Shown here piece after piece: positions 1 to 36,817 of a stretch of 64,000 nt of DNA. The translations under genes were made by a program, and so were the position numbers. Within the stretch, counting starts at the first letter, position 1. Each line of letters begins with the position of its first letter. The stretch covers positions 1-64,000 of the forward strand of contig JAAFKI010000045.1 in the NCBI GenBank assembly GCA_021399345.1, read 5' to 3'. The notes under the pieces were generated by a model. It was not told the DNA's origin, did no database searches, and was given only the letters and a program-made list of their open reading frames with translations. The stretch comes from Candidatus Heimdallarchaeota archaeon. GTDB lineage: Archaea > Asgardarchaeota > Heimdallarchaeia > Heimdallarchaeales > Heimdallarchaeaceae.

Positions 1-3000
1 CATAAAACTAAAGATGGAAGGGTGATAATTGTGGAAATTAGTTCTCACTTATTCACTCTTGGTGATGACTTAGTTAGTTTAGCTGTTGTAAGAGATATCA
101 CCGAAAGGAAAGAAGAACAAGATGAATTGATAGAAAGTGAAGAAAAGTTCAGACAAATAGTCCAGAATGTAGATGAAGCTATTTTCATGTCACCCTTAAC
201 AGCTGATAACATGATGGGGAAGTTTATAGAAGTAAATTATATAGCATGTGAATGGACTGGATTTTCAAGAGAAGAACTTCTTCAAATGGCACCAGTTGAT
301 TTACATACCCCAGAAGAAACTGTTGGACAATCAGAAATCGGTAAAAATCTATTAGAAAAAAGTAGAGTTACATTCGAAGGGTACATAATTCACAAAGACG
401 GTAGTAAGATTCCAGTTGAATATAACTCAAATATCTTCTTAATGAACAATGAAAAAGTTGTTTTAACAACAGCTAGAGATTTAAGAGAGAGAAGAAAAGC
501 AGAGGCGGAGATTACTAGTAGTGAAGAAAGGTTTAGACAGATATTCCATAATTCAAGTGATGCTATCTTCTTAACTTACCTAAGAGAAAATGGTTCTTCA
601 AGTAAATTTATTGAAGCAAATAATGTAGCACTACGATGGTTAGGTTTTTCTAAAGAAGAATTGCTTGATAAGTTTTCTAGTGATATTACAACTCCTGAAG
701 AGATAGATTACAATTCTGAGTATACAAAAAAGATTGTGGATACAGGTCATATGACTTTTGAGACTATTCTATTTTCTAAGGATAGAAAACGAATACCAGT
801 TGAAATTAATTCACATATCTTCGAATTACAATCTCAAAAAGTAATACTTTCAATAGCAAGGGATATTACTGAAAGGAAAAAAGCCCAAAGAGACTTAATG
901 GAAAGTGAGGAAAAATACAGAAAATTAGTTGAAACAATTCCCGCAGCAATTATACGTTCAGATTCATCTGGTAGAGTGACATTTGTCAATAAAAGAGCAG
1001 CTATTCTTCATGGTTATGAGAATGAAGATCAATTGCTTGGAAAGAAGACTGATGAACTAATCGCCTATGAGGATACTTTTACAGCTCAAGATGTTCAAAG
1101 AAGAACCATAGAAGATGGATTCATTCATGATATTGAAATTTCAATTTTAAGAAAAGACGAAACAACCATCCCAGGGGTGTTTCATGCAGCAGCTATAAAA
1201 GATAAAGAAGGAAGCGTTTTTGGTTTTATAGGTGTTGAAATTGATATTACTGAAAGGAAAAAAGCAGAAGAAGATCTTAAAGAAAGTGAACAAAAATTTA
1301 GACAAATATTCCAAAATGCAAAAGATGCAATTTTCATTCACAAAATAGATGAATATGACGAAATTGGGGATATGTTGGAAGTAAATGAAACAGCTTGTCA
1401 GTGGTTGGGGTACACTCGAAAAGAGCTTCTTAACTATGAAATTAATGCAAATAGTAATATTAGTAATCTTCAATTTTCGTTGGAAATTACAGAAGATCTA
1501 TTCGCAGCAGGAACAAAAACTTTCGAAACGCAAATAGAGAATAACAAAGGTGAATTGCGACCAGTGGAGCTCAGTTCCCATCTCTTTACACTGGGAGATC
1601 AACAAGTATTGCTGTCTGTAGCTAGAGATATAACCGAACAAAAGATAGCTGAACTTTCTATTAGGAAGAGTGAAGAAAGATATAGAACACTTATTGAAAC
1701 CTCTCCTGACGCTATTATTCTGATTGATCTAGATGGACGAGTTTCTTTTGCCAATCAACAGACTGCAAATATGTATGAATATGATGATATAGAAGATATG
1801 ATTGGTTTGACAACTGTTGATTTTATTGCTAGAGAGAATCTAGAATTTGCAAATAATCAACTAAAACTAGTTTTAACTGAAGGACGATTACAAAATACTC
1901 AATTTATGTCACTAAAGAGAGATGGAAGCAAATTTCCAATAGAACTAAGTGCTTCTCTAACTACAGATGAGGAAGGAAATCCTTCTGAAATAATGGCTGT
2001 TATTGGAGATATTGAGGAAAGAATGAAAGCTGAATCAGCACTAAAAGAAAGCGAAGAAAAATTCAGACAAACTTTTGATCAATCAAATGATGGAATATTC
2101 CTACATGATTTAAGAGGAAATATTTTGGATGTCAATCTTCGAGTTAAAGAGCTCTTTGGTTATTCTAAATCGGAATTTCTTCAATTAACTATAATGCAAT
2201 TGCACCCAATTACTGAGCAGGAAACATCTAAGAAAGCATTTGATACAATAGAGGAAAAAGGTTCTGTTAATTTTGAAACCAGATTCCGAAGAAAAGATGG
2301 TTCAGTCTTCCCAGCAGATGTATCTTCTAGTAGGTTTGAAATAGGAGGAATAGAGGTTGTTCAGGGAATTGTCAGGAATATAACTGACCGTAAAAAAGCT
2401 GAAGAAGAACTTATAGAGAGAGAAGAACAATATAGACAAATTTTCAATAATACAAATGATGCTATTTTCTTGACAAATGTCGATGAAGAAAGAAATAGTA
2501 CTAGTACATTCATAGAGGTTAATGACGTAGCTTGCACACTATTGGGATATGAAAGGGATGAACTTTTAAAAATGAAATCCTCTGAGATTACAGCTCCTGA
2601 AGACAGAGATGTACTTTCTGAAAACATTCATCAAATTATAAAGGAAAGAGTGACAACTTTCGAAAATACGCTAATATCAAAGGATGGAAAAAGAATTCCT
2701 ACTGAAATCAGTTCTCATGTTTTTGAGCTACGCGGTGAAATGTGTGTTCTATCAGTATCTAGAGATATTACTGAGAGAAAAAATGCAGAGAGAGAATTAA
2801 TGGAAAGTGAGGAAAGATATCGTAAGCTCTTCCATGAAGCAAATGATATTATTGCAATTCTGAGTATACCACGAGATGGTTCTATCGGTAATATTGTTGA
2901 AGCAAATGATCCAGCATTAGTAATGACCAAATATAAAAGAGAGGAACTAATTGGTTTGAGTCTTGTAGACCTTGTTAAGGATCTAACTGAGGAAGAGATA

Positions 3001-3471: not shown

Positions 3472-3507
3472 TGCCAATATTGGTTTATCCTAATTAACCT
3501 CCCAACA

Positions 3508-3515
3508 ATTTATAT
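3508..3515 (+). promoter_or_regulatory. Archaeal TATA box for a probably leaderless CaCA gene
   Basis: TTTATATA ending about 24 nt upstream of the ATG at 3539. Confidence 0.5.
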
Positions 3516-3538
3516 ATTACTCGAGAATATTTCTGAGT

Positions 3539-6427: not shown

Positions 6428-7435
6428 CTATGATCTTCTTTTCTTTCTGATGTAAATCAAACCTGAAAGTAGGGTAATGGCAGCTAATATTGATAAGATT
6501 GAGAAAGGGGTTTTTTCAATAGAGATATAGACTTCCATATCATTAATCACAAATAAGCTGTCTACTAAAAATATGAAAATATCGCCAAGAGCTTGTTCTC
6601 CTTCAATCCACTCAATAGAGCTAAAATCATACTCAAAATGCTGTATTATTGTTACAATAGATGTACCAAAATGAATAGCTGTTTCAAAACCAATCAGTGA
6701 TAATTTAACATTGGAAAAATCTAAGGTTATATTGCTGACAAGTGTATTAAATTCGATACTTTTATCTTCAATAGGTACTTCAGTAAAATAGATATCATCT
6801 GGATCGGTCCATGATAGCTCTTCACCTAAAACTATTGCATCCAATCTAATTGTTCCTTTCAGCAAAACAATAGGAGTAAGTTCTAGACCAAGTGATTGTA
6901 GCTCTGGTAATCCAGGAATTTCAAGACCATCTACTGTAAAGAGGATAGGACTGAAATTTATGGGAACCGTGATATTTTCTCCCAATAAAGTTTCAAAATC
7001 AGCAAAAGATTCAATTTCACCTTCCTTCACATCAATATAAACAGGTCCAGTACTTGGGGTTACTATAATTATTGTACCATTTAATCCGAGTGTGAAATTA
7101 CCTGGATTACTACTTATTTGTAACCCAAATTCTGTGGTACCATCTTTAACATCCTTGTTCAAGTATGAAGTAAAATTAAGAGGTACATGCATATTTGTGG
7201 TAAAGGATAGTCTTGGTGCAATTGCATATCCCAAAGTGTCATTTGCAATGTTAAAAAATAAGTTTATTTTATAATCTTGAGTGAAGTTTACTAAACTAGA
7301 AGAAGTAAACCAGTCTTCGATATTTTCGATTGTATCCTTTTGAAATTCAGCGGTAACATTACTGTTTAGTGATTGAAAACCTAAACTGAGTAGAATTGTT
7401 AATGTAATTATAGTAAATATTCGATTCTTCTTCAT
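6428..7435 (-). CDS. Secreted cell-surface protein with C-terminal TM anchor and basic tail
   Basis: Likely start MKKNRIF (ATG 7435) followed by a signal-peptide-like hydrophobic run; ends TPFSILSILAAITLLSGLIYIRKKRRS. Confidence 0.75.
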   Translation of the reverse strand: MKKNRIFTIITLTILLSLGFQSLNSNVTAEFQKDTIENIEDWFTSSSLVNFTQDYKINLFFNIANDTLGYAIAPRLSFTTNMHVPLNFTSYLNKDVKDGTTEFGLQISSNPGNFTLGLNGTIIIVTPSTGPVYIDVKEGEIESFADFETLLGENITVPINFSPILFTVDGLEIPGLPELQSLGLELTPIVLLKGTIRLDAIVLGEELSWTDPDDIYFTEVPIEDKSIEFNTLVSNITLDFSNVKLSLIGFETAIHFGTSIVTIIQHFEYDFSSIEWIEGEQALGDIFIFLVDSLFVINDMEVYISIEKTPFSILSILAAITLLSGLIYIRKKRRS

Positions 7436-7541
7436 TATCTTCAAAATAATAACGGGAACATAATCTATAAAAGCTTTGTATTTACAAAAATTGGTTAGAA
7501 AACCCAAAAGAATTTAATACAGCATACTCTAATAAAAAGAT

Positions 7542-22591: not shown

Positions 22592-24487
22592 TTACTCATC
22601 ATCCTCTACGGGTTCATAATCCACATCGATAACTTGTTCTTCATCAATATCATGTTGAGTTGGAGCACCAGGAGCACCAGGAGCACCAGGAGCACTAGGA
22701 CCATATTGGCCTTCTGGTTGAGCTTCACCAGGAGTTTGACCTGTTTCCTGATAGATTCGTTGAGATATTTGCATCATAATTTGCATAAGTTCATCAGTTT
22801 TTGCTTTAATTTTCTCAGCATCCTCAGTTTCAGTTTCTTTCTTCAGTTCTTCCATCTTTTCTTCTAAAGATTTCTTCTCAGAATCAGATATTTTTTCTCC
22901 TAATTCTTCGATGGTTTGCTCGGTAGAATATACTGCTTGTTCTGCAGCATTTTTAGCTTCGATGATTAATTTTCGTTTCTCATCTTCTTCTCTATATTTT
23001 TCAGAATCATTTTTCATTTTACCAATGTCTTCATCTGATAGATGTGATGATTGAATTGTTATTTTCTGTTCCTTACTTGTCCCTAAATCTTTGGCTGATA
23101 CCTGCAGAATTCCATTTGCATCAATATCAAATGCAACTTCAATCTGAGGAATATTTCTGCGAGCAGGGGGGATTCCAACTAGTTGAAATTGTCCTAGAGT
23201 AATATTATCTGGAGCCATGGTTCTTTCTCCTTGAAGAACATGAACTTCGACAGATGTTTGCATATCTGCAGCTGTTGTGAAGACTTTCTTCTTTGTAACT
23301 GGAATGGTAGTATTTCTATCTATTAAAGGAGTCATTACTCCACCCAAGGTTTCAACGCCCAATGTTAAAGGAGTCACATCAAGAAGTAAGATATCTTTAA
23401 CTTCTCCGGCTAGAACAGCAGCTTGAACAGCTGCACCTAAAGCAACAACTTCCTCAGGAGCAACCCCTTTATGTGGTTCTTTACCAAATAACTCCTTGGT
23501 CATTTTTCTAATCATAGGCATTCTTGTAGCTCCACCAACTAAGATTACTTGGTCTAAATCACCAGGTTTGATTTTTCCATCTTTCAATGCTTGTCTAGAA
23601 GGACCAGCACATTTCTCTACTAAATCCTTAGTCATATCTTCAAATTTAGCTCGAGATAATTCCATATCAAGATGTTTTGGCCCTGAAGCATCAGCTGTAA
23701 TGTAAGGTAAACTGATTTGTGTTTTCAATTTAGATGTTAGTTCCATTTTAGCTTCTTCTGCTGCATCTTTTAATCTTTGAACAACTTTAGAATCTTTGGA
23801 TAAATCTATACCTTCTTTCTTCTTGAATTCTTCACTAATCCAATCAATTATTCTTTGATCCCAATCATCCCCACCTAATAGATTATTTCCAGAAGTAGCA
23901 ATTACTCTAAATAATCCATCATCGAGTTCTAGAATTGAAATATCGAAAGTTCCTCCACCAAGATCAAAAACCAAAACTCTTTCTGCACCTTCTTTGTCTA
24001 GCCCATAAGCCAGAGCACTGGCAGTAGGTTCATTTACAATTCTCAAAACCTCTAAACCAGCAATTTCTCCAGCATCTTTTGTAGCTTGCCTTTGAGAATC
24101 ACTGAAATAAGCAGGAACAGTTATAACAGCTTTCAGAATTTTTTGGTTGAGATATGCTTCAGCATCTTCTTTTAGTTTAGATAAAATCATAGCAGAAATT
24201 TCTTCAGGGCGAAATTCTTTATCATCTACTTTAAATCTAAAATCAGTACCCATTTTTCTCTTAATACTTCGAATAGTTCTATCAGGCAAGACTATAGCCT
24301 GTCTTTTTGCTTGTATTCCAACAGTACGAGTTCCGTCCTCATTGAATGTAACAACACTAGGAGTGATTCTTCCTCCTTCAATATTTGGAATAATCTCTGG
24401 TTTACCTGCAACCATATATGCGATACCTGAGTTAGTTGTACCTAAATCAATTCCAACGACAAGTTCTTTTTTTGTTTCGTTACTCAT
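22592..24487 (-). CDS. dnaK: Chaperone DnaK (Hsp70), short archaeal/Gram-positive type
   Basis: [37 protein letters not shown]. Confidence 0.97.
22662..22697. repeat. 9-bp tandem repeat (GGAGCACCA x3 plus GGAGCACTA) encoding the APG repeats of the DnaK tail
   Basis: Read directly; in frame with [12 protein letters not shown]. Confidence 0.85.
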
Positions 24488-24596
24488 TTTATCACCATTA
24501 AGGTACTTTGTTAATGTAAAATATTTGCTTTACTTAAACAAGTGTTTTGATTTAGATGTCAAATAGTGATATATATATCTTATCATTGGAAAAAAA

Positions 24597-25619
24597 TTAT
24601 CCAAAGGTAGGTTTCCCTTTGGAGCTATGACGAGTTCGTTTCTTTTTCTGTGTTTTATAATAGGGTGATTTATTGAGTAAAATACCTCTGACCGTTGGTT
24701 TGAATAGTTTAATTAGGAATCTCCTAAAGATAATTTTCTTCTTGAATACTTTGATGAAATCTTCAAAAGAATATCTTTGAAATTTCAGTAATTTCTGTGC
24801 TTCAACTGTGTTCATCCAATCACAGTGATAATAATCATCAATATTTTTTACAGGCTTAAATGCTTCTTCAGGTAACATCCCTATCCCCAAAGCTTCAAGC
24901 AGTTTTGAAACATAGTCGGATTGGTATAATTGATTTCCCTCTCCACCTCCGATGAAAAGAATCTTTCCTTCAGTGTCAGCTTCAACAGCATTTGCGCAAG
25001 CTAATCCAACATCTCTAGTATCTGCAATCTCTATTCTTTGTTTCAAAGGTATTTCATACATTATATTAGGGATATTCCAACCTAGTTCAAATGGTGTAAT
25101 TGCGGCAAATCGTAAAATTGTCCAGGGAATTTTACTATCAATTAGTTTCTTTTCCATCTCAACTTTATGTTTAGCATAATTATCATATTCCAGAGGATTT
25201 ATTGGATCAGATATCCTTGTAGGAGGAATATGACCCATTCTGTTACCATGAACTGCGATAGAGGATGCGTAAATAATTTTAGGAGGTGATTCCATCCTCT
25301 CTACTGCACGTAATATGTTAGTTGCACCAGTTACATTAACATCATATGCTAAATCTGGTTTATCGTATGCTAAAGGAGGAATTATTGCGGCTAGATGAAT
25401 TATAACATCAACATCTTTGACTAAATCTTCTGTTACTCCTTGATCCCTGATATCTCCCCAAATAGTATCAAAATATCCAAGCTTTTTCAACTTTCTTCTA
25501 GTCTTTAGATTTCTAGGATTCTCTAAGTCAAAACATTTTACAGAATACCCTTTCTTAAGCAAAACCTCTAAGGTACTTTGTCCCACATTTCCAAATGCCC
25601 CAGTGAGTAAGACTCTCAT
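24597..25619 (-). CDS. Extended SDR / NAD-dependent epimerase-dehydratase
   Basis: TGAFGNVG, HLAA, SS, YAKHK catalytic motif. Confidence 0.88.
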   Translation of the reverse strand: MRVLLTGAFGNVGQSTLEVLLKKGYSVKCFDLENPRNLKTRRKLKKLGYFDTIWGDIRDQGVTEDLVKDVDVIIHLAAIIPPLAYDKPDLAYDVNVTGATNILRAVERMESPPKIIYASSIAVHGNRMGHIPPTRISDPINPLEYDNYAKHKVEMEKKLIDSKIPWTILRFAAITPFELGWNIPNIMYEIPLKQRIEIADTRDVGLACANAVEADTEGKILFIGGGEGNQLYQSDYVSKLLEALGIGMLPEEAFKPVKNIDDYYHCDWMNTVEAQKLLKFQRYSFEDFIKVFKKKIIFRRFLIKLFKPTVRGILLNKSPYYKTQKKKRTRHSSKGKPTFG

Positions 25620-25877
25620 AAGTTATATTGCACACCGACAGTTATATACAGTTCAGTGAAACGAATTTATGTAAATAAATAAATGTAATTCTGTTTTTAT
25701 GGAAATGTTTTAAGCTCCTCCATTAAGCCTTGTAAAGCCATATTAAGGGATCAATTTTTCTTTGGTTAATCTTTTATAAATCCATAAATAATCAGTTTTC
25801 AACACGCTTATATCTAATTGTTTCACTCAGAGATTTATAAAGAAAAATTAGGGAGCAGTTTATGTTCAATAAGATTC

Positions 25878-26720
25878 CTAGAGGAATAAATTACCTTTAA
25901 TAACTAAAGTTGCATCGCCTTCTATTTCAACTCTATTCTCCTTAGTTGCTCTTACAGTTAACTCTCCGCTTCTACTAGAAACTTGCTTGGCTTTCATTTC
26001 ATTTTTGTCTAAAAGCTTAGACCAGTAAGGTTGAAGCTGTGTATGAGCAGAACCTGTTACTGGGTCTTCGTTAATTCCTACCCAAGGAGCAAAAAACCGG
26101 GATACAAAATCATACTGATTATCTCCTTTTGCAGTTACCATTACCCCTCTTATAGTTCTGCTTGAATCAATCATCTTCATTGCATTGAAATCTGGTGATA
26201 ACCGCTCCACAGATTCTACGTTTTTCAATCTGATTAATAGGTCTTGACTTACCTCGGAATATACATAGTCTTCAAATTCATGAATCCCCAATGCGTCGAG
26301 CAGTTTCTCGTCAGGTTCACAAGTGTTTGATTCAGTCAATGGAAAGTTTAATTGAATTTTCTCATCTGCTTCTTTAGCCAATAATTGACCGCTCAAGGTT
26401 TCAAATTTAATTACATCAGTGATCAAGTGATATTCATTAAAAAGAACTGCAGCTGCAGCCAAGGTTGCATGCCCGCACAGATTAACTTCTACTTGAGGAG
26501 TGAACCATCTCAATCGAAAAGTATCTACATTCCTAATGGTTTTGAAATCGTCAACATAGATAAAAGCTGTTTCTGAAAGATTCATTTCAGCTGCTATTTT
26601 CTGAAGAGTTACATCATCAAACTCTCGAACGATTAAACAAACTGCTGCAGGATTTCCCTTGAATGCTTCACTGCTAAAAGAATCTAGCTGGTAAAGGGGA
26701 ATATATTGATTATTTGTCAT
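25878..26720 (-). CDS. PhzF family isomerase
   Basis: FKGNPAAV, NLSETAF, EVNLCGHATLA, EDPVTGSAH. Confidence 0.92.
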   Translation of the reverse strand: MTNNQYIPLYQLDSFSSEAFKGNPAAVCLIVREFDDVTLQKIAAEMNLSETAFIYVDDFKTIRNVDTFRLRWFTPQVEVNLCGHATLAAAAVLFNEYHLITDVIKFETLSGQLLAKEADEKIQLNFPLTESNTCEPDEKLLDALGIHEFEDYVYSEVSQDLLIRLKNVESVERLSPDFNAMKMIDSSRTIRGVMVTAKGDNQYDFVSRFFAPWVGINEDPVTGSAHTQLQPYWSKLLDKNEMKAKQVSSRSGELTVRATKENRVEIEGDATLVIKGNLFL

Positions 26721-26875: not shown

Positions 26876-29800
26876 ATGAAACGAAAAGCAATAATTGTTA
26901 CAACTATTTTTCTACTTTCTTTGTTTATGTTTCAAATGAGTTCGATGATGATTATGACATCAGCTGCTCAAAATGACACTAATGTAGAAATAGAAATAAT
27001 TACACAACTATCTTCTCTTCCAGAACAACCCTTTGTTGATTCGATTAGAACTTTTGTTTTACATTTTGATAAGAAAGCAATGTTCAACAACTTTGTTGAT
27101 TCTTACAATCCAGTAGAAGAATTAACATTTTCTAATCTCAAAATGGTTGCTTTGGAGGATTATTTAAGTAAAAAGGATGAATATAGAAAAATAGACGGAG
27201 TAGATGCCGTTTTAGATATTACAGATTCCAAATTTTACTTCTATGAACAACCAGAAGAAACTGAATATATACTGCTAGATGATTCAGGTGTGAAACAAAC
27301 TATTCAAACAAGTGATTTACTCAATATAGATGCTCTTTGGTCACTAGGTTATACAGGCAGTAATACTGTAATTTATGACATAGATTCTGGGATATTTGAA
27401 GATCATGTCGATTTTGAGGATAGAATATTGGGTACTAGCCAATCATTCCTTTTGACAATATATGGAGCTCCACTCAATGATTATTCAATCAACGATTTGA
27501 ACAGTCATGGAACTCATACTGCAGGAATAGCAGCTGGCGCAGGAATCGCTAATGGAGATTATATTGGAATGGCTCCAGATGCAGACATTCTAGTTGCAAA
27601 AATAGGTGGCGCTGGTCCCACAGTCTATGCTTTAGCTGGAATTGCCGCAATGGATTATGGTCTAACTATAGGTGTAGATGTTGTCAACCTCAGTTGGGGT
27701 GGAGGAGACAGCGAAGGAATGGATTTAACCGAAATTGCAGTAGAAGAAATGATCGCTCAAGGAGTGGTCGTTGCTGCAGCAGCAGGTAATGCGGGTGACA
27801 GTGGTTTTTATTCATTAGATTCTCCGGGATCTGCACCAAATGCATTAAGCGTTGCAGGAACAACAGTAACTGGTGGCAGATATGCAGTTAGTTCAAATGG
27901 ACCCACAGCGGAGGGTTACATTAAACCCGATATTGCAGCTCCAGGTATGGATATAATGAGTTGTGGAATAAGTAATCCTTCTGAATATGTTATGAAAAGC
28001 GGAACTTCAATGGCAACTCCACATATTGCAGGTGGTGTAGCAGTCTTAATTGAAGCATTGAAAGATCAAGGAATACAATATGATGCTGGTTTAATTAAAG
28101 CAGCTCTTATGGGATCAGCTAATCTTGGAACTAACAGTTACCTCAGCAATGGTGCAGGGCTCGCAAACTTTGGTACTGCTTATGCTGATATTCAATCTGC
28201 GCCAACTAATGGTTCTGGTTTCCCAATTATTCTTTATGCACACCCATACTTCCCAACAATTGATTATCAGATCGTTCCTCAAGGATTTCATGCTGAATTA
28301 TTTGTCCAATCAGTATCTTCAACTCCTTGGGAAGATTTAGATCCTGTTATTAGTGGAAACATTACTACTATTCTGGGTATGAACACTACTGCAGTTACAG
28401 GACCATGGACAAAGAATTTTTATTTGGCAATCAATATTCCTGACGATGCAGCTTTAGGTCTTTATACAGGTATCATCACTTATGAGACTGCTGCAGGTGT
28501 AACAGCTAATACTCCAATAGAAATCACTGTTATGGAAGGTAAAGGAAAAATACTTTATGCAAGATTATTTACTGATTATGGAATAGATAATCTACTTGGT
28601 CAGTATTACTATGCAATTGAAGACCTTTTATCAAAAGGAATTGCTGTTAATGAGTATAGATTGCTTAACATAACTGGTGAAGAAAACGTCATTACTGAAG
28701 ATTTGTTAAATCAACATGATGCTATTTGGATACCAGATCCCTTTGAGTTAAGACTTGATGAAACTTATGCCATTTCTGGTTATACAGAAATAACGGACAG
28801 TGAAATTACGGCTATTCAAAATTACGTATCAGGTGGAGGAGGTTTATTTATAGACTTCTTAGGATTATCTTCACAGGAAACACCTTCTGGAGATAGAAAT
28901 CTTGGAACCAACATTACAAGATTAAATGAACTCACTTCTATTTATGGAATGGAAGCTTCATATGACTTGCACGATTTTGGTTCTCCAGTAAAAATACCTG
29001 TTACCAAGACTCATGCTGTTACTGAAGGTGTTGATTTCATAGATCATTATGGTACAACATTAACTGTTGCAGGCGATGCTATTGCTCTAGCAAAATATGA
29101 AAACAAACCAACAGTAGCTCTCTGGGAGAATTTAGCTGGAGGAAGAGTATTAGTAACTTCAACTAATTTCCATATAGATACATCAGGATATCGTGATTTA
29201 TACAATTCCGGAACACAAAATCAGATTTTTGCAATAAATGCATTCAACTGGTTAACTGCTAGAGAAAAAATTACAGCAGATTATCTTGAAGATGAAACAG
29301 GTGTAGATTTTGACATATTCTCACTTGATCCACTTGCAAATATTGATGCCAGTGTTAGACTTGTTGATCCAACTGGAACTTCATTCCAATATGTATCGTT
29401 AACTGATGATGGTGGTGGACTATATAGCTATAGACTTGATTATACAGACGAAGGTATCTACACATTTATTCTTGAATCTGCTGACGATAAATGGATAGCT
29501 GAGTTTCTATTTGATTCAAGCCCACCAGTAATTACCAGTGGAACTTGGGCAAATTATACAGTCCCAGAAACTGCTAGATTGGATTTCAAGATTCAAGATA
29601 CGACTACAGACATTGTTTCAACTACTGTAGAACTTAATGGTGGAAGTGTCAGCATTTCTGGAACCGGAAAAGTGAGAACCTTTGTTGTATTTGAATCTTC
29701 TCTAATTGAAGGAGATAACACATTGTATGTCTATGCAAGAGATGCAGCTGGTAATATAATTGAAGCTACATATATTATTCCAACAAAGAAGCCAAAAGGA

Positions 29801-29884
29801 AGCCCAGTGAACACATTTTATGTAATAATAGGGTTGTTATCTATAACCGCTCTAACTACTTTCTTAAGGAAAAGGAAAAACTAG
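26876..29884 (+). CDS. Membrane-anchored S8 subtilase with Site-1-protease-like C-terminal GATase-like domain
   Basis: Signal peptide; catalytic motifs DSG, HGTHTAG, AAGN, GTSMA; C-terminal TM+basic tail; post-catalytic segments EITAIQNYVSGGGGLF, GTNITRLNEL, GRVLV. Confidence 0.88.
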   Translation: MKRKAIIVTTIFLLSLFMFQMSSMMIMTSAAQNDTNVEIEIITQLSSLPEQPFVDSIRTFVLHFDKKAMFNNFVDSYNPVEELTFSNLKMVALEDYLSKKDEYRKIDGVDAVLDITDSKFYFYEQPEETEYILLDDSGVKQTIQTSDLLNIDALWSLGYTGSNTVIYDIDSGIFEDHVDFEDRILGTSQSFLLTIYGAPLNDYSINDLNSHGTHTAGIAAGAGIANGDYIGMAPDADILVAKIGGAGPTVYALAGIAAMDYGLTIGVDVVNLSWGGGDSEGMDLTEIAVEEMIAQGVVVAAAAGNAGDSGFYSLDSPGSAPNALSVAGTTVTGGRYAVSSNGPTAEGYIKPDIAAPGMDIMSCGISNPSEYVMKSGTSMATPHIAGGVAVLIEALKDQGIQYDAGLIKAALMGSANLGTNSYLSNGAGLANFGTAYADIQSAPTNGSGFPIILYAHPYFPTIDYQIVPQGFHAELFVQSVSSTPWEDLDPVISGNITTILGMNTTAVTGPWTKNFYLAINIPDDAALGLYTGIITYETAAGVTANTPIEITVMEGKGKILYARLFTDYGIDNLLGQYYYAIEDLLSKGIAVNEYRLLNITGEENVITEDLLNQHDAIWIPDPFELRLDETYAISGYTEITDSEITAIQNYVSGGGGLFIDFLGLSSQETPSGDRNLGTNITRLNELTSIYGMEASYDLHDFGSPVKIPVTKTHAVTEGVDFIDHYGTTLTVAGDAIALAKYENKPTVALWENLAGGRVLVTSTNFHIDTSGYRDLYNSGTQNQIFAINAFNWLTAREKITADYLEDETGVDFDIFSLDPLANIDASVRLVDPTGTSFQYVSLTDDGGGLYSYRLDYTDEGIYTFILESADDKWIAEFLFDSSPPVITSGTWANYTVPETARLDFKIQDTTTDIVSTTVELNGGSVSISGTGKVRTFVVFESSLIEGDNTLYVYARDAAGNIIEATYIIPTKKPKGSPVNTFYVIIGLLSITALTTFLRKRKN

Positions 29885-29979
29885 TTTTTTCCCTCTTTTT
29901 CTTCCTTTGGCAAACATTTTTAACACTGTTTTCTTTAGTTCTCTTGAGATTCTCACGAGATTAATTACACAAGGGAAGT

Positions 29980-30642
29980 ATGAGGATTCAAATGGCTATA
30001 GCAAAGGGAACAAAATTCATTGTTTTATTTTTACTCGCCTTTTCAGCTCTATGTTTCATATTATCATTCGTAATATGGTATCTAACCAGCTTCTTTTGGC
30101 ATTTCATTATACTCGGTTTAATTGTAATAGCTAGCTCTTTCTTGATTTGGTCTTTTAGAAATCCTGAAAGATCCGTTAGTATTGACATCAATAAAATTCT
30201 AGCTCCAGCTGATGGAAGAATTATGGAAGTTGAAGAGAAAGAAGGCATAATCTACTGCTTGATTAGAATGTCGCCATTTGATGTTCATATGACAAGAAGT
30301 CCAATCAAAGGAAAAGTAACAAAAACAGCATTTAAGAAGGGGGCTCATTGGCCAGCATATTTTCCAAATTATGCAAAGAAAAACCAGAGGAATAAGATAG
30401 AAATTATTGATGAAGTAGGAAACATTAATGCAGTTGTTACTCAGATTTCGGGTATCTTTGCAAGAAGAACAGTTGCTTATGTTAAGGGTGGAGATATCAT
30501 AAGACAAGGGGAAATAATAGGCACCATCAGGTTTGGTTCACTAACAAGTTTAGAAATCAAAAGTGATAAAAAGTTTAAATTTAAGATAGGTATATCTGAT
30601 GTAGTAAGAGCTGGGAAGACAGTGTTAGCTGAATGTGATTAA
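29980..30642 (+). CDS. psd: Phosphatidylserine/archaetidylserine decarboxylase proenzyme
   Basis: FRNPER, APADG, MSPFDVH, ARR, RFGS self-cleavage motif. Confidence 0.9.
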   Translation: MRIQMAIAKGTKFIVLFLLAFSALCFILSFVIWYLTSFFWHFIILGLIVIASSFLIWSFRNPERSVSIDINKILAPADGRIMEVEEKEGIIYCLIRMSPFDVHMTRSPIKGKVTKTAFKKGAHWPAYFPNYAKKNQRNKIEIIDEVGNINAVVTQISGIFARRTVAYVKGGDIIRQGEIIGTIRFGSLTSLEIKSDKKFKFKIGISDVVRAGKTVLAECD

Positions 30643-31443
30643 ATGGAATGGCAAGATGTAACATTTTTACAAAAAAACTGGATAAAAAAGACAGCTTGGA
30701 TTTTGGCAAATTTCCTAACTTTTTCAAGCCTGATTCTGGCAATTATTGGAATTGTTTTCACTTTTATAAATCCAACAAATTTTAACTATTGGTTTGCAAA
30801 AATAATAGCATTATGTTCCATATTTGATTTTGCAGATGGAAAATTAGCAAGAATAAGCGGTAGTAGAAAACTGGCAGTTGATATTGATACAATTGTGGAT
30901 TCTATTGCTTTTGGAATCTTTCCAGCTATATACTTGGGTTACACAGTTGCTTCTTGGCCTATACAAACTTGGAATATTGTTGCAGGTATTTTCACAGGAT
31001 TAGTCTATTTAGGTGCAGTATGGTTTAGACTTTATCGTTTCATTAAGCGAGATCCACTTTATACTCCTTATTTTAATGGACTGCCTAGTCCATTTGCAGG
31101 GATGGTCGTTGCTTGTTTAGTTATTTTTCCATACACAGAACAATGGGTAATTATGTTATCGACAGTAATAATTTCAGGATTCATGTTATCAAAAATTCCA
31201 TTTCCCTCCTTTAAGGGAGTCCCTACAAAATTTGACATGTTTTGGATAATATCTACTACACTGTGTGTTGTTCTTTTTGCCGTACTTCCTTTCGATCCAA
31301 ATTGGATGGTTTACCCTGCATATGGAATTGCAGTTCTAATGATAATTTATCTCATCGTGGGTCCAGGTTATGCTATGAAACTTGATGAAAAATTAAAATT
31401 AGGACCTAAAGAAGATACAGAAAAAATGAAAAGTAAAAAATAA
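30643..31443 (+). CDS. pssA: CDP-alcohol phosphatidyltransferase (phosphatidyl-/archaetidylserine synthase)
   Basis: DFADGKLAR...DIDTIVDSIAFG, RLYRF, FNGLPSP; directly after psd. Confidence 0.85.
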   Translation: MEWQDVTFLQKNWIKKTAWILANFLTFSSLILAIIGIVFTFINPTNFNYWFAKIIALCSIFDFADGKLARISGSRKLAVDIDTIVDSIAFGIFPAIYLGYTVASWPIQTWNIVAGIFTGLVYLGAVWFRLYRFIKRDPLYTPYFNGLPSPFAGMVVACLVIFPYTEQWVIMLSTVIISGFMLSKIPFPSFKGVPTKFDMFWIISTTLCVVLFAVLPFDPNWMVYPAYGIAVLMIIYLIVGPGYAMKLDEKLKLGPKEDTEKMKSKK

Positions 31444-31455
31444 GCTTGATGCTTA

Positions 31456-32505
31456 TTATTTCTTTAATTTTGTTAGAGCGATTTGCTCAAAACCTAAAGC
31501 ATTTGACATCACAGCATCATCTGGTTGTAATACTTCATTGGTGTTCTTAACTATGTTAGCTTCAAAGAAGGCTTGTTTTAGATAATCACCAAAGATATAA
31601 GCTCCTCCACCACAAACAATAACTTTCTCAATCCAAGCATCAGGCGGAAGATTGTTGAGCAGTCGATTGCTTTCATCAACAATCACGTCGGCAATAGAAG
31701 TAACTGCTTGATCCATTGCTGACCCAATATCTAGGGCTTTTCCACCAACTAGAATATTTTTTTTACCTTGTTCAATAGCTGTCATCAGGTCAAATGGTCT
31801 TATGATTTTGCCAGCTTTTTCTTGAATTGCTCTAGATAAAGCATTTGTTAAACTGTCAACAGCTTCTTCTAAAGAACCTGATGCAGCTCTCATCATATTA
31901 CCTTTATACATACATAGAATGTCAGTAGTTCCATGACCAACATCTACAATTATAGAATCTACTGCAGTTTGAACACCACTTGTTTTTAGTGTATGCCAGT
32001 AAGTTCCGTAAGGTTCTGGTGCGATAAATACTTGTTCAATCAAGATTTTCATCTGTTTTGATTCACCAGTAGCATCATTTCGAACCTTAATTTCGTGAGT
32101 TCCTTTGAGACCTCTACTTAATTCCTTACTCTCATCAACACCAGTTGCGATGGGAACACCTGTAGCGACTACAAATTGTTCATAACTGGATTTCATAATA
32201 AGACTCAAAATAGCTTTCAAAGCTAGAAGACTATTTTGAATTGATTTCATCTTCCCTTCTGAAGCTAAAGGCTTTCTGATCTCACTCTGCAATCTAGCTA
32301 ATTCACCTATGTAAATTTCATGTCCCTTTGCATCTTCTATGATAAGATTGTTTAGCCAACTTTTATCAGAAGACATACCTTGCCAACCAGGATTAGGTGT
32401 TCCTATAACAGAAGGAATCCTATACTTCAAATCTCCTGAAGTAAGTTTTATTGTGCTTGTTCCTAAATCAATTCCAACAGCATTTGTCATTGGTGCGATA
32501 GGCAT
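31456..32505 (-). CDS. Actin-like ATPase, ParM/StbA-like
   Basis: Phosphate-1 GIDLGTSTIK, IPSVIG, YIGELAR, TGVP, connect-1 APEPYG, phosphate-2 VDVGHGTTD, adenosine CGGGA, SNALGF; GGTGA RBS before ATG 32505. Confidence 0.85.
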   Translation of the reverse strand: MPIAPMTNAVGIDLGTSTIKLTSGDLKYRIPSVIGTPNPGWQGMSSDKSWLNNLIIEDAKGHEIYIGELARLQSEIRKPLASEGKMKSIQNSLLALKAILSLIMKSSYEQFVVATGVPIATGVDESKELSRGLKGTHEIKVRNDATGESKQMKILIEQVFIAPEPYGTYWHTLKTSGVQTAVDSIIVDVGHGTTDILCMYKGNMMRAASGSLEEAVDSLTNALSRAIQEKAGKIIRPFDLMTAIEQGKKNILVGGKALDIGSAMDQAVTSIADVIVDESNRLLNNLPPDAWIEKVIVCGGGAYIFGDYLKQAFFEANIVKNTNEVLQPDDAVMSNALGFEQIALTKLKK

Positions 32506-32802
32506 ATTTTTCACCACAGTTTTTATCTCATGATTTCATTATTTAAACCATTTGTAAGTTCACAAGCAAAGTTAATCACCAAGCTCTTTGCACTTACTGT
32601 ATTTCATTCTAATATACTTAAATTACTATAAAAGCTCGAGGTTCAATTCCATAGTTTTTTATTCCAATTATTAAAATGTAAAAAGCATAAATTTAAAGGT
32701 TTCAACGCTTTAAAGTTAATCATAAGATTATATACCACTGGAAAAAGTATATAAATGCATGTGCTATTTTACGGCTAGCACACGTAAACCCAGGTGATAA
32801 TT

Positions 32803-33366
32803 ATGGGCATATTTCAGCAAGATATGGACGAACTAGAGGTGAGGGCCCAGATTGATCGTGTCCTACGACAATCAGCTCAACTATTTACAACTGAGAATGG
32901 TAAAAGAGTTCGTTTAAACGAAGCAATTCGTTTGCGAGAATTTAATGCAGTTATGGGGTTGATTATAGCTTATAGTGCAGGTGCTTTCTTAAGCGTCGAC
33001 CGATTTAGAATCGAAGATGCACATCCCATCCGCTATAAAAGAATCATAAACAGATTAAACTGTTATAGTGGTCAAGTAAACTCAGCTTTAATGCTTGAGT
33101 TATTACGTCTAAGGGATCAAACTAAGATAAGCAAATATGAACTAATTAGAGTAGTTCAGAGCAAATACTTTAATCACAAACCTGTTGGGACTAGAGATAT
33201 CACTGAATCTCTTAACAGAATGTTAAGAAAAACAATGGACGAATATTTCAGCTTTGAGAATAGATATTTCAGAAGAGGCCCATTCGAACTTCGTATAGTT
33301 GAAGTTCCACGCAACACCCCATACGAATTAGCAAAAATTAGCGTAGATAACGTAATTCAATTCTAA
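32803..33366 (+). CDS. Basic (Arg-rich) hypothetical protein
   Basis: AGGTGA RBS, TATA (TATAAA) upstream, divergent from the actin-like gene. Confidence 0.7.
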   Translation: MGIFQQDMDELEVRAQIDRVLRQSAQLFTTENGKRVRLNEAIRLREFNAVMGLIIAYSAGAFLSVDRFRIEDAHPIRYKRIINRLNCYSGQVNSALMLELLRLRDQTKISKYELIRVVQSKYFNHKPVGTRDITESLNRMLRKTMDEYFSFENRYFRRGPFELRIVEVPRNTPYELAKISVDNVIQF

Positions 33367-33472
33367 ACACTCATCTCTTTTGTAAGGAAGTTGTCTTATC
33401 TTTTTTTGCTATTCAATGTTTAAAATCAATCTAATTATTATAATGGATTTAAAACTGGAAAAGAAAGGAGTT

Positions 33473-34231
33473 TCAGATGTTCTGGACGTATTCCAATCTT
33501 TGTTCTACAGCTAATTGAGTGAGTTTTTGAATAGGTTTAACAATCAACCAAACTGAATCTGGTCTCTTATCTATTCGTAATCTATTACTATCATCAAAAT
33601 GCTCATCTCTTTTTGGAGATGTTAGGATAGAAAGTAATTCATTCCTTGCATTTAAACAGCTTCCAGTTAATACTAAGTTTGCGGCTTTATCACTATGAAT
33701 AGCACCTTCATCAAGTAGATTTTGGATAATATCTCTTTTATCAAGTCTTTCCTCAGTGGGTAAATCAGATTTGTTGATATAAGCAACTACAGGAATCTCA
33801 GATCCAAATTTCTCACCTACTATTTCCTTAGCTTCCTTAATAATCGCTTCATTTTGCTCCTTTGCTGTTTTTTCGAAGTTCAAAAATAGAATTACTGCAT
33901 CGACACCTTTCATGACAATATCTCTCTGAACCTTGTGTCTTTCTTCTCCAGGAACTGTCCAGAGTTGGTATCGCAATCTATCAAAATTATTTCCTTTAAA
34001 TGGAGGTGTTTGAAAGACACCTTGATCAAAAAATACTGTACGACCTGAATCATCTTGTATTTTTGTTAATGACGAAACAATAGTTTTTGGATTCTCCATT
34101 CTTCTGAGTGCATTAAAAACTGTCAACATGCTTGTTTTACCACTCATCGGAGGTCCAAACAGAACTATCTTAATTGTTGGTTTTCCTTCCCTATCAACTG
34201 AAAAAAGGTTAGATAACTCTAGTTGACTCAT
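33473..34231 (-). CDS. MglA/Arf-like small GTPase (paralog 1)
   Basis: KIVLFGPPMSGKTS, GRTVFFD, QLWTVPGE, NKSD. Confidence 0.85.
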   Translation of the reverse strand: MSQLELSNLFSVDREGKPTIKIVLFGPPMSGKTSMLTVFNALRRMENPKTIVSSLTKIQDDSGRTVFFDQGVFQTPPFKGNNFDRLRYQLWTVPGEERHKVQRDIVMKGVDAVILFLNFEKTAKEQNEAIIKEAKEIVGEKFGSEIPVVAYINKSDLPTEERLDKRDIIQNLLDEGAIHSDKAANLVLTGSCLNARNELLSILTSPKRDEHFDDSNRLRIDKRPDSVWLIVKPIQKLTQLAVEQRLEYVQNI

Positions 34232-34324
34232 ATGTATTTGTTTAGAGAATTAGTATATAAAATTATACATAATTTTGTACATTTTTTTGGTGTTTAAATA
34301 TAGTGATGTAATTACTAATCTGAA

Positions 34325-34490
34325 GGATTGTAGACATGCACCAACTTTATGGTGATCCTCGGGTTTACATCCAACAATCATCCAAAAGCGAACTGTAAGC
34401 ATCTTTGCGTAAAGATGTGGGCGGGGTAGGAGGGGATGTGGCGTCCCCATGATTTGCCTTAAGCACTTCTAAAGAATTTGTACAAAATTC
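34325..34490 (+). ncRNA. Candidate structured ncRNA of unknown class
   Basis: GC-rich island with four hairpins whose G-U pairs favour the + strand; TTTAAATA at 34293-34300 about 25 nt upstream. Confidence 0.5.
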
Positions 34491-34547
34491 ATGTCATAGT
34501 AAATGGTAGTTTAATAAATGAAAAAAACGAGATTAGAAGAGGAAGTT

Positions 34548-36746
34548 CTATCTTTTACTTCTTCTTTTAATTGTTACAATTGATATACCAATACTGATAA
34601 TGATTAATCCCATCCAGAATGAAAAATCTAATGAAGCTGTTGGAAGTGGATTACCTTCAATAGCAAATGTAGCCGAATCTACAGATTTTACAGTTCGACC
34701 CGCATATCTGAAGCTTACTTTAATATGATAGTCTCCGAAATACATACTGAGATCGATTAATCCACTTTCCCAGTCATTTGTAGATGGATTATAAAGCATT
34801 GAAAATGCATCTACAGTTACTCCTTGTGAATTATATAAGAGAATCATTACAAGAACATTTTCTGAGAATGAACTCCACGCATCAAGTTGAGTGTAGCTTG
34901 CATTTCCCCTTACATAAATTCCCGTTGATTCACCGTTCAAAGTAAAAGAAGGTTCTTCAACAGCTAGAATGTGATCAATATTAATCAGATCTACAGCTGA
35001 TTCACCATATTGTGATGATCCAGATGCGATAATTGATACATCATATATTTCTTCATCAAAGGATTGCAAGGATAGTGTAATGTACCAATCAAGAGATACC
35101 GAATAATTCATAGCAAGAATTGTATAAATTGTTGAGGACCCATCAATCTGAAATTGAACATACACATCTACTCCACTTGAATCAGTAATAGGTGTTGAAT
35201 TTTCATCTAGAATAACTACATTATACAACGAAAAATTCCAATTTCCACTTACATAATTATAGCTAAGAGAATCTACTGTAAGAGGGCTACCTGGTAATAA
35301 CGTAAAATCAATATAATCTGTAGTTCCCAAACCAAATTGACTTCCAACTGAGATTATAGGTGTTGATGATGACATCAAACTAGTTATTATATATACCTCA
35401 TCTACAAGCGTTCCATTCAAGAATTCAACGATATTCACATCTTGAATGCTTTTAGTTACCGTCCATCCATTTATATCATGAACAGCGAAAGACATTCCCA
35501 AATAAGTTGAAGCTGGATCAGTTGGTTCAAACATAAGGTAATCAGGAGGTGAATTCAGTTTTGCAACATAAAGCCCATAAAAACGATTTAATTTATTAAA
35601 TTCAGATGTTGGAACTGTTGAAATTAATTCATAGTCCATCGGAATATCGAGATTATTAAAACCATATAGTCCTCCTCCGAAAGATGTATCATCTACATAT
35701 AATGCCGTAGCCCAATTTAAGAATAGATCATTAAACTCAATAGAATATCCGACACTAGCAAGAGCATTTTCAATACCAGGTGCTCCACCAGCTGTTTCAT
35801 TGACTAAGAAGGTAACAGCATCAACCCCATATTTCTCAGCTAAATAGAAAATAAAGAGATACGCGCTTCCATAATCAATACGTACATCCTTTCCACCAGA
35901 ACTCTCGTAATTCCAATATAATAATGAGTCATCAATATTATGGGCAAAATAATCTCGAGCAAAAACTGTCAAATTATTAATGACATCGTATCCATTGAGA
36001 TATTTGGCAAGTTCAGCACAACCTTCATCAACCCACCAAAATTCATCAGTATCATAATTAAAATGAATTAAATGTTGAAACTCATGAGCTAAAACTCCAT
36101 AAGTTGTAAAATAATCAACATAAACCATTTCTCTACTGTTTGATGTCAGTCCAGGTGATTCATTATTTGGATCAAAATATCCTGCAACTCCACCATCTAG
36201 ATCAGATATTAAAATTGTTACATGAAAATCACCATCGATATCTCCAAGATATCCATCAGGATCACCAAAGTAGAGAATATCATTAGGGTATATCTTTGTT
36301 TCAAATTCATCTCTCCAAGATTCTGCTTTTGTTCTTGCATTAGATAGTCCTTCTGAAGAAACTAAGCTGCTCAAAATATACACATAACTGTTTGCACCTA
36401 TAGCTAGTAATTGAGCTTCTTTCAGCACATATGTATAAGGAGCTGAGAGAAAGGAATCAATTATCCAGAAATCTCGTTTTTCATCTATAACATCTGCTTT
36501 GATTGGAACACTGATTTTTGGCAAATCATAAACAGGTTGAGGATTTTCTGACAAATATTTGTATTTCAGAACTTGTGTGGGATTTGTAGGATCACTTTTG
36601 AATAAATCGTAAGCAATCTTTGCATATTCATTTTGCTCTGAATCAAATTCAGTGTCAATTCCTAAAGTGGTATAAGAGTTCCCTAAGAGAACTATAAATG
36701 CCAAACTAATACTAAAATAAGTTATCTTTCTCGTTCTCTTATTCAT
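34548..36746 (-). CDS. Surface-anchored zinc metalloprotease (gluzincin, M30/M6-like)
   Basis: AHEFQHLIH...WVDEGCAE; signal peptide after MNKRTRK (ATG 36746, GAGGT RBS); C-terminal TM+KRRSKR. Confidence 0.82.
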   Translation of the reverse strand: MNKRTRKITYFSISLAFIVLLGNSYTTLGIDTEFDSEQNEYAKIAYDLFKSDPTNPTQVLKYKYLSENPQPVYDLPKISVPIKADVIDEKRDFWIIDSFLSAPYTYVLKEAQLLAIGANSYVYILSSLVSSEGLSNARTKAESWRDEFETKIYPNDILYFGDPDGYLGDIDGDFHVTILISDLDGGVAGYFDPNNESPGLTSNSREMVYVDYFTTYGVLAHEFQHLIHFNYDTDEFWWVDEGCAELAKYLNGYDVINNLTVFARDYFAHNIDDSLLYWNYESSGGKDVRIDYGSAYLFIFYLAEKYGVDAVTFLVNETAGGAPGIENALASVGYSIEFNDLFLNWATALYVDDTSFGGGLYGFNNLDIPMDYELISTVPTSEFNKLNRFYGLYVAKLNSPPDYLMFEPTDPASTYLGMSFAVHDINGWTVTKSIQDVNIVEFLNGTLVDEVYIITSLMSSSTPIISVGSQFGLGTTDYIDFTLLPGSPLTVDSLSYNYVSGNWNFSLYNVVILDENSTPITDSSGVDVYVQFQIDGSSTIYTILAMNYSVSLDWYITLSLQSFDEEIYDVSIIASGSSQYGESAVDLINIDHILAVEEPSFTLNGESTGIYVRGNASYTQLDAWSSFSENVLVMILLYNSQGVTVDAFSMLYNPSTNDWESGLIDLSMYFGDYHIKVSFRYAGRTVKSVDSATFAIEGNPLPTASLDFSFWMGLIIISIGISIVTIKRRSKR

Positions 36747-36817
36747 TAAAAGTGACCTCTTTAGACTATATGTGACAAATATCATTAAAAATGTTGACAA
36801 TCAAGCAATAATTCTAT

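Follow-up and report, generated by a model that had tools for sequence, protein, structure and literature searches.

The stretch of DNA analysed here (the window) comprises 64,000 nucleotides (nt) of contig JAAFKI010000045.1 from Candidatus Heimdallarchaeota archaeon (assembly GCA_021399345.1), a genome of 3.27 Mb that is 88.6% complete. Between positions 26876 and 31443 it carries three open reading frames (ORFs) on the forward strand, of 1002, 220 and 266 codons for amino acids, respectively (table 1). The first encodes a subtilase, recognized by the Pfam model Peptidase_S8 at residues 162-421 (E 1e-43), and it is followed by psd, for a phosphatidylserine or archaetidylserine decarboxylase (PS_Dcarbxylase, E 3e-30), and by a pssA-like gene for a CDP-alcohol phosphatidyltransferase (CDP-OH_P_transf, E 7e-9). 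Where homologues of the protease bear a name, it is Heimdallarchaeota, Heimdallarchaeaceae or Asgard group. A first, sequence-only reading of the locus had likened the protease to eukaryotic site-1 protease (S1P, also known as MBTPS1 or SKI-1) and had suggested, from its position upstream of psd-pssA, a link with lipid homeostasis; its ORF coordinates are correct and every stretch that it quoted is present in the translation. As judged from its predicted structure, the protease is S1P-like in build, and it is a member of an Asgard-wide family with this S1P-type build; the tie to lipid synthesis does not seem to hold up.

The proteolytic activation of SREBP, ATF6 and further membrane-bound factors begins with S1P (PMC11231238). 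The mature enzyme is described as a Peptidase S8 domain (residues 187-478) to which a P-like β-sandwich (479-616), a GIFT subdomain (617-998), a transmembrane (TM) helix and a short tail are joined in this order; among the proprotein convertases, the same structural account presents the GIFT subdomain as peculiar to S1P (PMC11231238). The enzyme is classed as pyrolysin-like, and its cleavage motif is given as R-X-aliphatic-Z (PMC8551645). If the body made of these three domains belongs to Asgard archaea by origin, one could test where a key signalling enzyme of the eukaryotic secretory pathway came from, and the archaeal forms would provide simpler, cysteine-poor models of how a GIFT domain tunes a subtilase. 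The S1P-type build found in Asgard archaea hints at an archaeal root for site-1 protease.

Domain anatomy and catalytic site

The AF2 model of the protease, calculated on an alignment of 43 homologues with 25-93% identity to the query (alignment A1), is confident (pLDDT 84.9, pTM 0.74). It shows, in order, an N-terminal helix (residues 2-30), an α/β propeptide (57-121), a disordered linker (121-141) that contains no Arg, the S8 domain (about 142-441), a β-sandwich (453-553), an α/β domain (557-794), two all-β domains (799-879 and 885-969) and a terminal helix (980-1001). The second all-β domain includes a match to the Pfam model Big_13 at residues 898-965, with 24.6-27.2 bits against a cut-off of 27. 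In VIA-align comparisons, the S8 domain superposes on subtilisin BPN′ at 2.0 Å over 273-279 residues, and the model aligns over residues 56..437 with pro-subtilisin E (3whi_A, 6..365) and over residues 50..545 with ProN-Tk-SP, the precursor form of a subtilase of Thermococcus kodakarensis (3afg_A; Z 44.9, 394 residues). Since propeptide and S8 domain align with these two proteins, the protease would be a zymogen with an I9-type propeptide. D170, H211, N305 and S378 are retained in each of the 43 aligned homologues and, with its S8 fold, Asp-His-Ser triad and oxyanion Asn, the protein is apparently an active subtilase of the Peptidase S8 family.

Both ends of the protein are conserved across the family, namely the MKRKAI... 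start and the C-terminal TM helix with its basic tail. The latter had been counted among the S1P traits of the protein: it is indeed present, but a crude screen found the same kind of ending, a TM helix plus a basic cluster, in 127 of the 2392 ORFs of at least 150 residues in the genome, so that a feature so generic carries little weight as an S1P trait. Sequons of the N-X-S/T type are not enriched in the protease (8 against 7.3 expected from shuffles). Four of them, at residues 445 (28208-28216), 893 (29552-29560), 679 (28910-28918) and 271 (27686-27694), are kept in 38-42 of the 43 homologues, and N445, at the junction between S8 domain and sandwich, recalls the structural glycan on N515 that is reported between the protease and P-like subdomains of S1P (PMC11231238).

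Likeness to eukaryotic site-1 protease

Tests of the C-terminal half as a single sequence gave no PDB match at E<=10 and, in Pfam, Big_13 only, and profiles and folds were therefore needed. S1P tops the Foldseek list for the whole model: its chain 9csd_A, of 744 residues, is aligned over 745 columns with E 3.3e-37, 8uw8_A reaches E 4e-35, and Tk-SP, which comes next, has E 1.4e-25. With VIA-align, 586 residues superpose at 2.9 Å with 22% identity, model 140..797 facing S1P 190..873, and S1P is the only row that spans S8 domain, sandwich and GIFT domain, every other row covering at most 394 residues; by Z score, S1P (Z 40.2) ranks 35th, in a group of some 50 S8 entries with near-equal values of about 40-45. 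The comparison with the human enzyme that had been proposed to check the likeness thus came out in its favour: the three-domain body superposes.

The region beyond the S8 domain was also modelled alone (residues 445-797) from alignment A2, which gathers 32 fragments from many Asgard families, with pLDDT 92.1 and pTM 0.90. Foldseek again placed S1P first for this fragment (E 1.3e-15, 416 columns), followed by IFT52 (8.8e-11) and OST48 (1.4e-8). In a VIA search of 48,161 chains, the order was IFT52 (Z 23.1, 198 residues at 2.2 Å), OST48 (Z 19.8) and S1P (Z 18.9), and only S1P aligned both domains of the fragment (310 residues at 3.3 Å, model 5..353 versus 478..874). At the sequence level, the A2 profile matched the GIFT domains of IFT52 in the PDB at E 2.9e-14, 1.2e-13 and 1.4e-9, and S1P at E 8e-8 (profile 94-313 versus 8uwc_A 606-858), a match by which the GIFT region is homologous to that of S1P.

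Language-model features point in the same direction. With residues 140-800, nine of the hits listed are eukaryotic MBTPS1 clusters, the best at 0.96 with 191 of 256 features in common, and lower scores go to an S8 cluster of Thorarchaeota (0.90) and to bacterial S8 clusters that have no GIFT domain (0.84). Residues 445-797 alone gave scores of at most 0.85 in the ESM Atlas, which serve as leads only. The S1P motifs cited in the sequence-only reading were found in the printed HMMER alignments to PDB S1P chains, opposite the stretches of the protease that it had named, as DVLWQMGYTGAN and PASMKQALIASA on the S8 side and as RVLWD, EEIAKLRRDVDNGLSLVI, GANIPALNEL and GGRIVLYGDSNCLD on the GIFT side.

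Taken together, the likeness to S1P is far beyond chance, and the three domains are predicted to be packed as one body, as in the S1P structure 8UW8. The order of elements beyond the S8 core that had been given for S1P is borne out by model and profile, with S8 domain, β-sandwich, GIFT domain, TM helix and short basic tail all in place. The two proteins (PDB 8UW8, 8UWC and 9CSD for the eukaryotic enzyme, as described in PMC11231238) further have in common a signal peptide, a prodomain, an S8A domain with Asp, His and Ser plus the oxyanion Asn, and a predicted type-I topology. The archaeal protease differs in having two extra immunoglobulin (Ig)-like domains between GIFT domain and TM helix, a compact GIFT domain (about 240 residues, that of S1P extending from residue 617 to 998), an S8 domain without the indels of S1P and one Cys only, and no SPRING, SREBP or ATF6 context is known for it. 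The generic S8A appearance of its catalytic motifs, from which an 'intermediate form' had been suspected, is no argument either way because S1P is itself placed among the pyrolysin-like enzymes (PMC8551645), and the S8 domain lacks S1P-specific indels; the idea of an intermediate is not supported.

Table 1. Features of the protease-psd-pssA locus (positions in the window; residues are those of the protease).
Feature	Position	Strand	Basis
S8 / β-sandwich / GIFT / two Ig-like / TM membrane subtilase gene (P0001)	26876..29884	+	ORF, Pfam, AF2 model
Putative signal peptide or anchor, residues 1-31 (KRK, hydrophobic core, TSAA/Q)	26876..26968	+	sequence; model helix 2-30; family-conserved MKRKAI... 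start; predicted cleavage site
Propeptide, I9-like fold, residues 57-121, followed by low-confidence linker, residues 121-141	27044..27238	+	VIA-align; pLDDT <50 at 121-141
S8 catalytic domain, residues 142-441	27299..28198	+	PDB and Pfam matches; invariant catalytic residues
Codon of D170	27383-27385	+	
Codon of H211	27506-27508	+	
Codon of oxyanion N305	27788-27790	+	
Codon of S378	28007-28009	+	
β-Sandwich, residues 445-555, counterpart of the S1P P-like subdomain	28208..28540	+	model strands 453-553; alignment to S1P
GIFT domain, residues 557-797	28544..29266	+	A2 profile versus PDB; VIA-align; Pfam IFT52_GIFT in family fragments
Two Ig-like domains (stalk), residues 799-879 and 885-969	29270..29782	+	all-β model elements; Big_13
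C-terminal TM helix and RKRKN tail, residues 976-1002, then stop codon	29801..29884	+	sequence; helix 980-1001; family-conserved
Spacer of 95 nt, with T-runs that follow the stop codon immediately and a TATA-like element, TTTTTAACA, some 60 nt ahead of the psd ATG	29885..29979	+	sequence
psd, phosphatidyl-/archaetidylserine decarboxylase	29980..30642	+	Pfam E 3e-30; generic psd models of NCBIfam
pssA-like CDP-alcohol phosphatidyltransferase (serine synthase type), abutting psd	30643..31443	+	Pfam E 7e-9; NCBIfam arch_ser_synth and pssA, below their cut-offs

Distribution of the family

A search of 400 Asgard genomes at a cut-off of E<=1e-30 found matches to the protease in 184, many of them over residues 140-800 of the query, and the forms differ among Asgard families (numbered f1, f4 and so on). 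In f1, to which the source genome belongs, full-length homologues occur in 28 of 30 genomes, with 41-94% identity and, in several genomes, as tandem pairs; in f7, 11 of 12 genomes have forms of about 985-1005 residues with 33-40% identity, and in f4 and f5 the forms are about 820-1070 residues long. The large family f31, one member of which is named Thorarchaeota, has forms of about 660 residues that cover residues 166-795 of the query and have no stalk, while f9, f11 and f26 have forms of 1213-1274 residues that match the Pfam models IFT52_GIFT and ABC_transp_aux directly. A zinc ribbon, presumably cytoplasmic, is found at the extreme C-terminus of the f11 and f26 proteins (L046 and L048, respectively) and none, at E<=1e-5, in that of f9 (L047). 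The protein of the window is thus the Heimdallarchaeaceae-type form, of about 1000 residues with a two-Ig stalk and alone upstream of psd-pssA, as opposed to the shorter, stalkless or the longer forms of the other Asgard lineages.

Among 1.84 billion representative proteins, the A2 profile matched 6044 at E<=1e-3, of which 1572 reach E<=1e-10 and 205 reach E<=1e-30. Within the best 150 of these 6044 matches (all at E<=1e-38), an S8 domain is present in 116 and stands directly before sandwich and GIFT domain in 114, the other 34 being fragments or multi-GIFT proteins of up to 4823 residues. Matches of this strength would not be expected to include S1P, and homologue searches with residues 440-900 and with the A2 profile, limited by their word index, gave Asgard-type proteins and a few GIFT proteins, S1P not being among them. 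Giants of 2000-4800 residues with 3-8 GIFT stretches, as counted with a hidden Markov model, and no S8 domain include P0056, P0060, P0061, P0088, P0133, P0158, P0193 and others. Twenty representatives were looked up and the four with names are all Asgard (Heimdallarchaeota LC_2, Ranarchaeia, Thorarchaeota and Odinarchaeota). No description of S1P-like proteases or of S8-linked GIFT domains in archaea was found in the full-text literature, most subscription journals lying outside that coverage.

The genome holds a second intact S8-sandwich-GIFT gene about 6 kb past the end of the window (C169:70157-73096; 1042-3981 of locus L004), whose 979-residue product is 26% identical to the protease and has an intact triad and a C-terminal TM helix with basic tail. 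This paralogue was considered as a closer relative of S1P and rejected, S1P ranking 14th for it with 75.7 bits versus 84.8 for Tk-SP. Tandem S8-GIFT duplicates, with 42-50% identity to the query, are found at L015 and L020-L024 (genomes G040, G037, G031, G024, G023 and G030), and in G040 the copy most like the query has one in-frame TGA.

Proposed function and descent

The explanation that we consider probable is that of an active, type-I, outward-facing and membrane-anchored subtilase zymogen with an S1P-type body, whose family may well share the origin of this body with S1P and for which psd and pssA are mere neighbours. A Sec-type signal peptide would export the protein, the I9-like propeptide (residues 57-121) would aid its folding and then be cut off in the flexible linker, and catalysis would be carried out by D170, H211 and S378 with N305 as the oxyanion residue. 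Sandwich and GIFT domain would pack onto the S8 domain to give the rigid body of three domains known from eukaryotic S1P, whose GIFT domain buttresses the loops bearing the oxyanion Asn and shapes access to the cleft, and the two Ig-like domains would form a stalk leading to the C-terminal TM helix with its basic cytoplasmic tail. The protease would most likely cut proteins at or near the cell surface, and psd-pssA, probably transcribed from their own promoter, would be old neighbours in a single family and lie outside any lipid-sensing circuit.

Several observations weigh against this explanation or, at least, against a simple orthology with S1P. Activity, topology and propeptide cleavage are all predictions. 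The A1 profile gives its best S8 sequence match to Tk-SP (PDB 3AFG, 9UES), which is grouped here with the pyrolysin-like archaeal subtilases, with 199.9 bits, followed by Vpr (170.2), an intracellular protease (158.4), S1P (156.3) and BPN′ (about 147), and it matches S1P in the S8 part only, a second stretch on GANIPALNEL having an i-Evalue of 3.8e+03. Relative to the family, the printed alignment shows two gaps in S1P, of 10 and 4 residues, and an insert of 6 residues; Tk-SP shares none of these differences. By sequence (2.9e-14 versus 8e-8) as well as by fold (Z 23.1 versus 18.9), the GIFT domain is nearer IFT52 than S1P, nothing in S1P corresponds to the two Ig-like domains, and a β-sandwich after the S8 domain is common, Tk-SP and Vpr aligning there as well. 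Finally, the S1P-specific Pfam models MBTPS1_3rd (PF23094) and MBTPS1_4th (PF23090) have no match at E<=10 either in the C-terminal half or in the whole genome. PF23090 is found in 32 of the 400 Asgard genomes (over its cut-off in 19), and in none of the 31 made up of the source genome and 30 other f1 genomes. Of the 32 A2 fragments, 13 match IFT52_GIFT, 12 ABC_transp_aux and eight MBTPS1_4th (best 8e-7), and the window's own fragment reaches IFT52_GIFT at E 0.021 only. With the S1P-specific models giving no match, membership of the protease in the S1P family is not established.

Many of these observations would be expected from a convergent fusion, a rival that we regard as quite possible, if on balance doubtful. 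An Asgard surface subtilase, engaged in protein scavenging or in the turnover of surface proteins, would have gained a common sandwich and a prokaryotic, GATase1-like GIFT module, and eukaryotic S1P would have acquired its GIFT domain separately, so that the likeness would be architectural only. The S8 domain, whose scores do not set S1P above Tk-SP or the subtilisins, fits such an origin, as do the occurrence of S8 domain and sandwich in succession in Tk-SP and Vpr and the failure of the S1P-specific Pfam models. The GIFT domain taken alone is closest to those of IFT52, OST48 and GldG-type proteins (PDB 5FMS, 5FMR and 6S7O; Pfam IFT52_GIFT and ABC_transp_aux), which are not fused to a protease and whose scaffolding roles lie in intraflagellar transport, in oligosaccharyltransferase and in gliding or ABC systems, and GIFT modules are abundant and promiscuous, as seen in the 6044 library matches with their giants of 4-10 copies. 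Against convergence stand the superposition of all three domains on S1P as a rigid body, the Foldseek search with the two-domain fragment, in which S1P is the best match and is aligned over both domains, the language-model features that put eukaryotic S1P clusters first, and the fact that the named carriers are all Asgard. The solved Tk-SP chains comprise neither GIFT domain nor Ig stalk nor membrane anchor.

Asgard archaea are the prokaryotes usually placed nearest the eukaryotes. Common descent of the three-domain body with S1P, as suggested by the conserved packing of the three domains in the model, is judged on its own to have an even chance at best, or slightly less. If it holds, S1P may, tentatively, be seen as an Asgard inheritance, in which the S8/sandwich/GIFT fusion would have arisen in Asgard archaea as a membrane-anchored surface protease; the earliest eukaryotes might then have inherited it, with a shift of its place to the endomembrane lumen, which is topologically outside, and its recruitment to regulated intramembrane proteolysis. 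S1P would in that case count as a new 'eukaryotic signature protein' whose root is archaeal, beside the eukaryotic GIFT proteins IFT52 and OST48.

The C-terminal tail and the lipid genes downstream

A different role for the C-terminus, which we hold to be very unlikely, is that motif, TM helix and basic cluster form a sorting signal for archaeosortase-type cleavage and lipid anchoring, with psd-pssA supplying the ethanolamine lipid. In Haloferax, HvPssA and HvPssD are reported to be needed for lipid anchoring that depends on the archaeosortase ArtA (PMC7157517). The NCBIfam models for psd and pssA of a 'protein sorting system' weakly resemble the present genes, with scores that are far below the sorting-system cut-offs (106.9 versus 240 for psd and 49.4 versus 200 for pssA), and generic models fit better. 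A gene of the exosortase/archaeosortase family is present in the genome (46 bits, over the cut-off; C53:38581-39279), but on another contig and among glycosyltransferases. The tail fits the TM-plus-basic half of LPXTG_anchor, at 16.5 bits versus a cut-off of 15.9 on the fragment; however, no archaeosortase signal model of NCBIfam matched at E<=1, in a search whose filters may lose short models, no motif is strictly conserved before the helix, and a TM helix with basic tail is, as said above, a usual ending in this genome. Other examples of such endings in the window are encoded at 34548-36800 (-) and 6428-7507 (-), and in many of the 127 endings strings such as DPYPL... and ..KTS[FY].. recur just before the helix and might be sorting signals.

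For the lipid genes, 27 f1 loci (L006-L032) were examined, of which 22 are informative, that is, have at least 760 nt of downstream flank. In 19 of these 22, the next gene after the protease is psd, in the same orientation, and pssA comes after it in 18, the flank of L025 ending inside psd; in the remaining three, a second S8-GIFT copy takes up the flank. Where the flank of a duplicated protease is long enough, as in L021 and L024, the copy nearest psd-pssA keeps the adjacency. Upstream, a PhzF gene is kept in 17 of the 27 loci. It is found in none of the four loci from other genera (L027-L030), yet psd-pssA is present in all four, and the downstream linkage therefore outlasts the upstream one. 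Outside f1, a scan of 114 flanking ORFs at 22 loci, all in other Asgard families, found neither a PS decarboxylase nor a CDP-alcohol transferase. At the five f31 (Thorarchaeota-type) loci (L043, L044, L045, L051 and L052), the gene of about 660 codons stands in each case beside a P-type cation ATPase (Cation_ATPase_N and _C), and a gene for a transporter of the major facilitator superfamily is near the S8-sandwich-GIFT gene at four of them, L044 having none.

The spacer between protease and psd measures 95-141 nt in 18 of 19 loci, and psd and pssA abut. By eye, T-rich tracts after the stop codon recur in the 20 printed spacers (that of the window and those of the 19 loci), across f1 genera, and an element resembling TTTTTAACA is found about 55-75 nt before the psd ATG in most of the 20, divergent genera included. 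The T-runs are probably the terminator of the protease gene, and the TATA-like element is probably the promoter of psd-pssA. Furthermore, psd is the only PS decarboxylase match in the genome and, being single-copy, it makes the pair probably the housekeeping route to an ethanolamine lipid. As to transcription, the S8 gene (27673-27873) and two stretches of psd (29968-30118 and 30199-30394) are matched at 100% identity by contigs of one metatranscriptome library, a weak hint that both are expressed. No RNA-library contig bridges the spacer (29885-29979), one X20 contig that spans the protease stop (29682-29900) being labelled probably DNA, and contigs cannot show transcript ends, so that nothing follows on co-transcription.

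Under these circumstances, it is most improbable that the protease is a functional equivalent of S1P that, with a site-2 protease (S2P, family M50), frees a membrane-tethered regulator and controls phospholipid head-group synthesis through psd-pssA. Such a circuit would agree with the S1P-like build and with the same-strand adjacency that persists across f1 genera even where the upstream neighbour changes. The adjacency is, however, absent from the other Asgard families with the same build, most spacers carry T-runs and a TATA-like element while psd and pssA abut, psd is a single-copy and thus presumably housekeeping gene, and the active site would face outward on a two-Ig stalk; moreover, no candidate substrate was identified, a search for substrates not having been made. 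The search for an S2P homologue, which had been proposed as a check, found one M50 gene (67 bits), but the same model matches 14 of 14 control genomes, and the presence of the gene is therefore uninformative. The supposed lipid-homeostasis link is thus not upheld, and the association of protease and lipid genes looks like mere neighbourhood.

A catalytically dead scaffold, lastly, can hardly be entertained, since the sequence already contradicts it, the four catalytic residues being invariant throughout the 43 homologues and intact in the paralogue.

Other genes around the locus

The flanking ORFs scanned on either side of the protease gene (22592-26720 and 29980-36800) encode Hsp70, an epimerase, PhzF, the products of psd and pssA, an actin-like protein and a small GTPase, two further ORFs being without a family; there is no ABC transporter gene among them. 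Part of this gene content is typical of Asgard archaea, namely Hsp70 (22592-24487, -), the archaeal actin-like protein (MreB-like_C / ALP_N; 31456-32517, -) and the Roc/Ras/Arf-like small GTPase (33473-34231, -).

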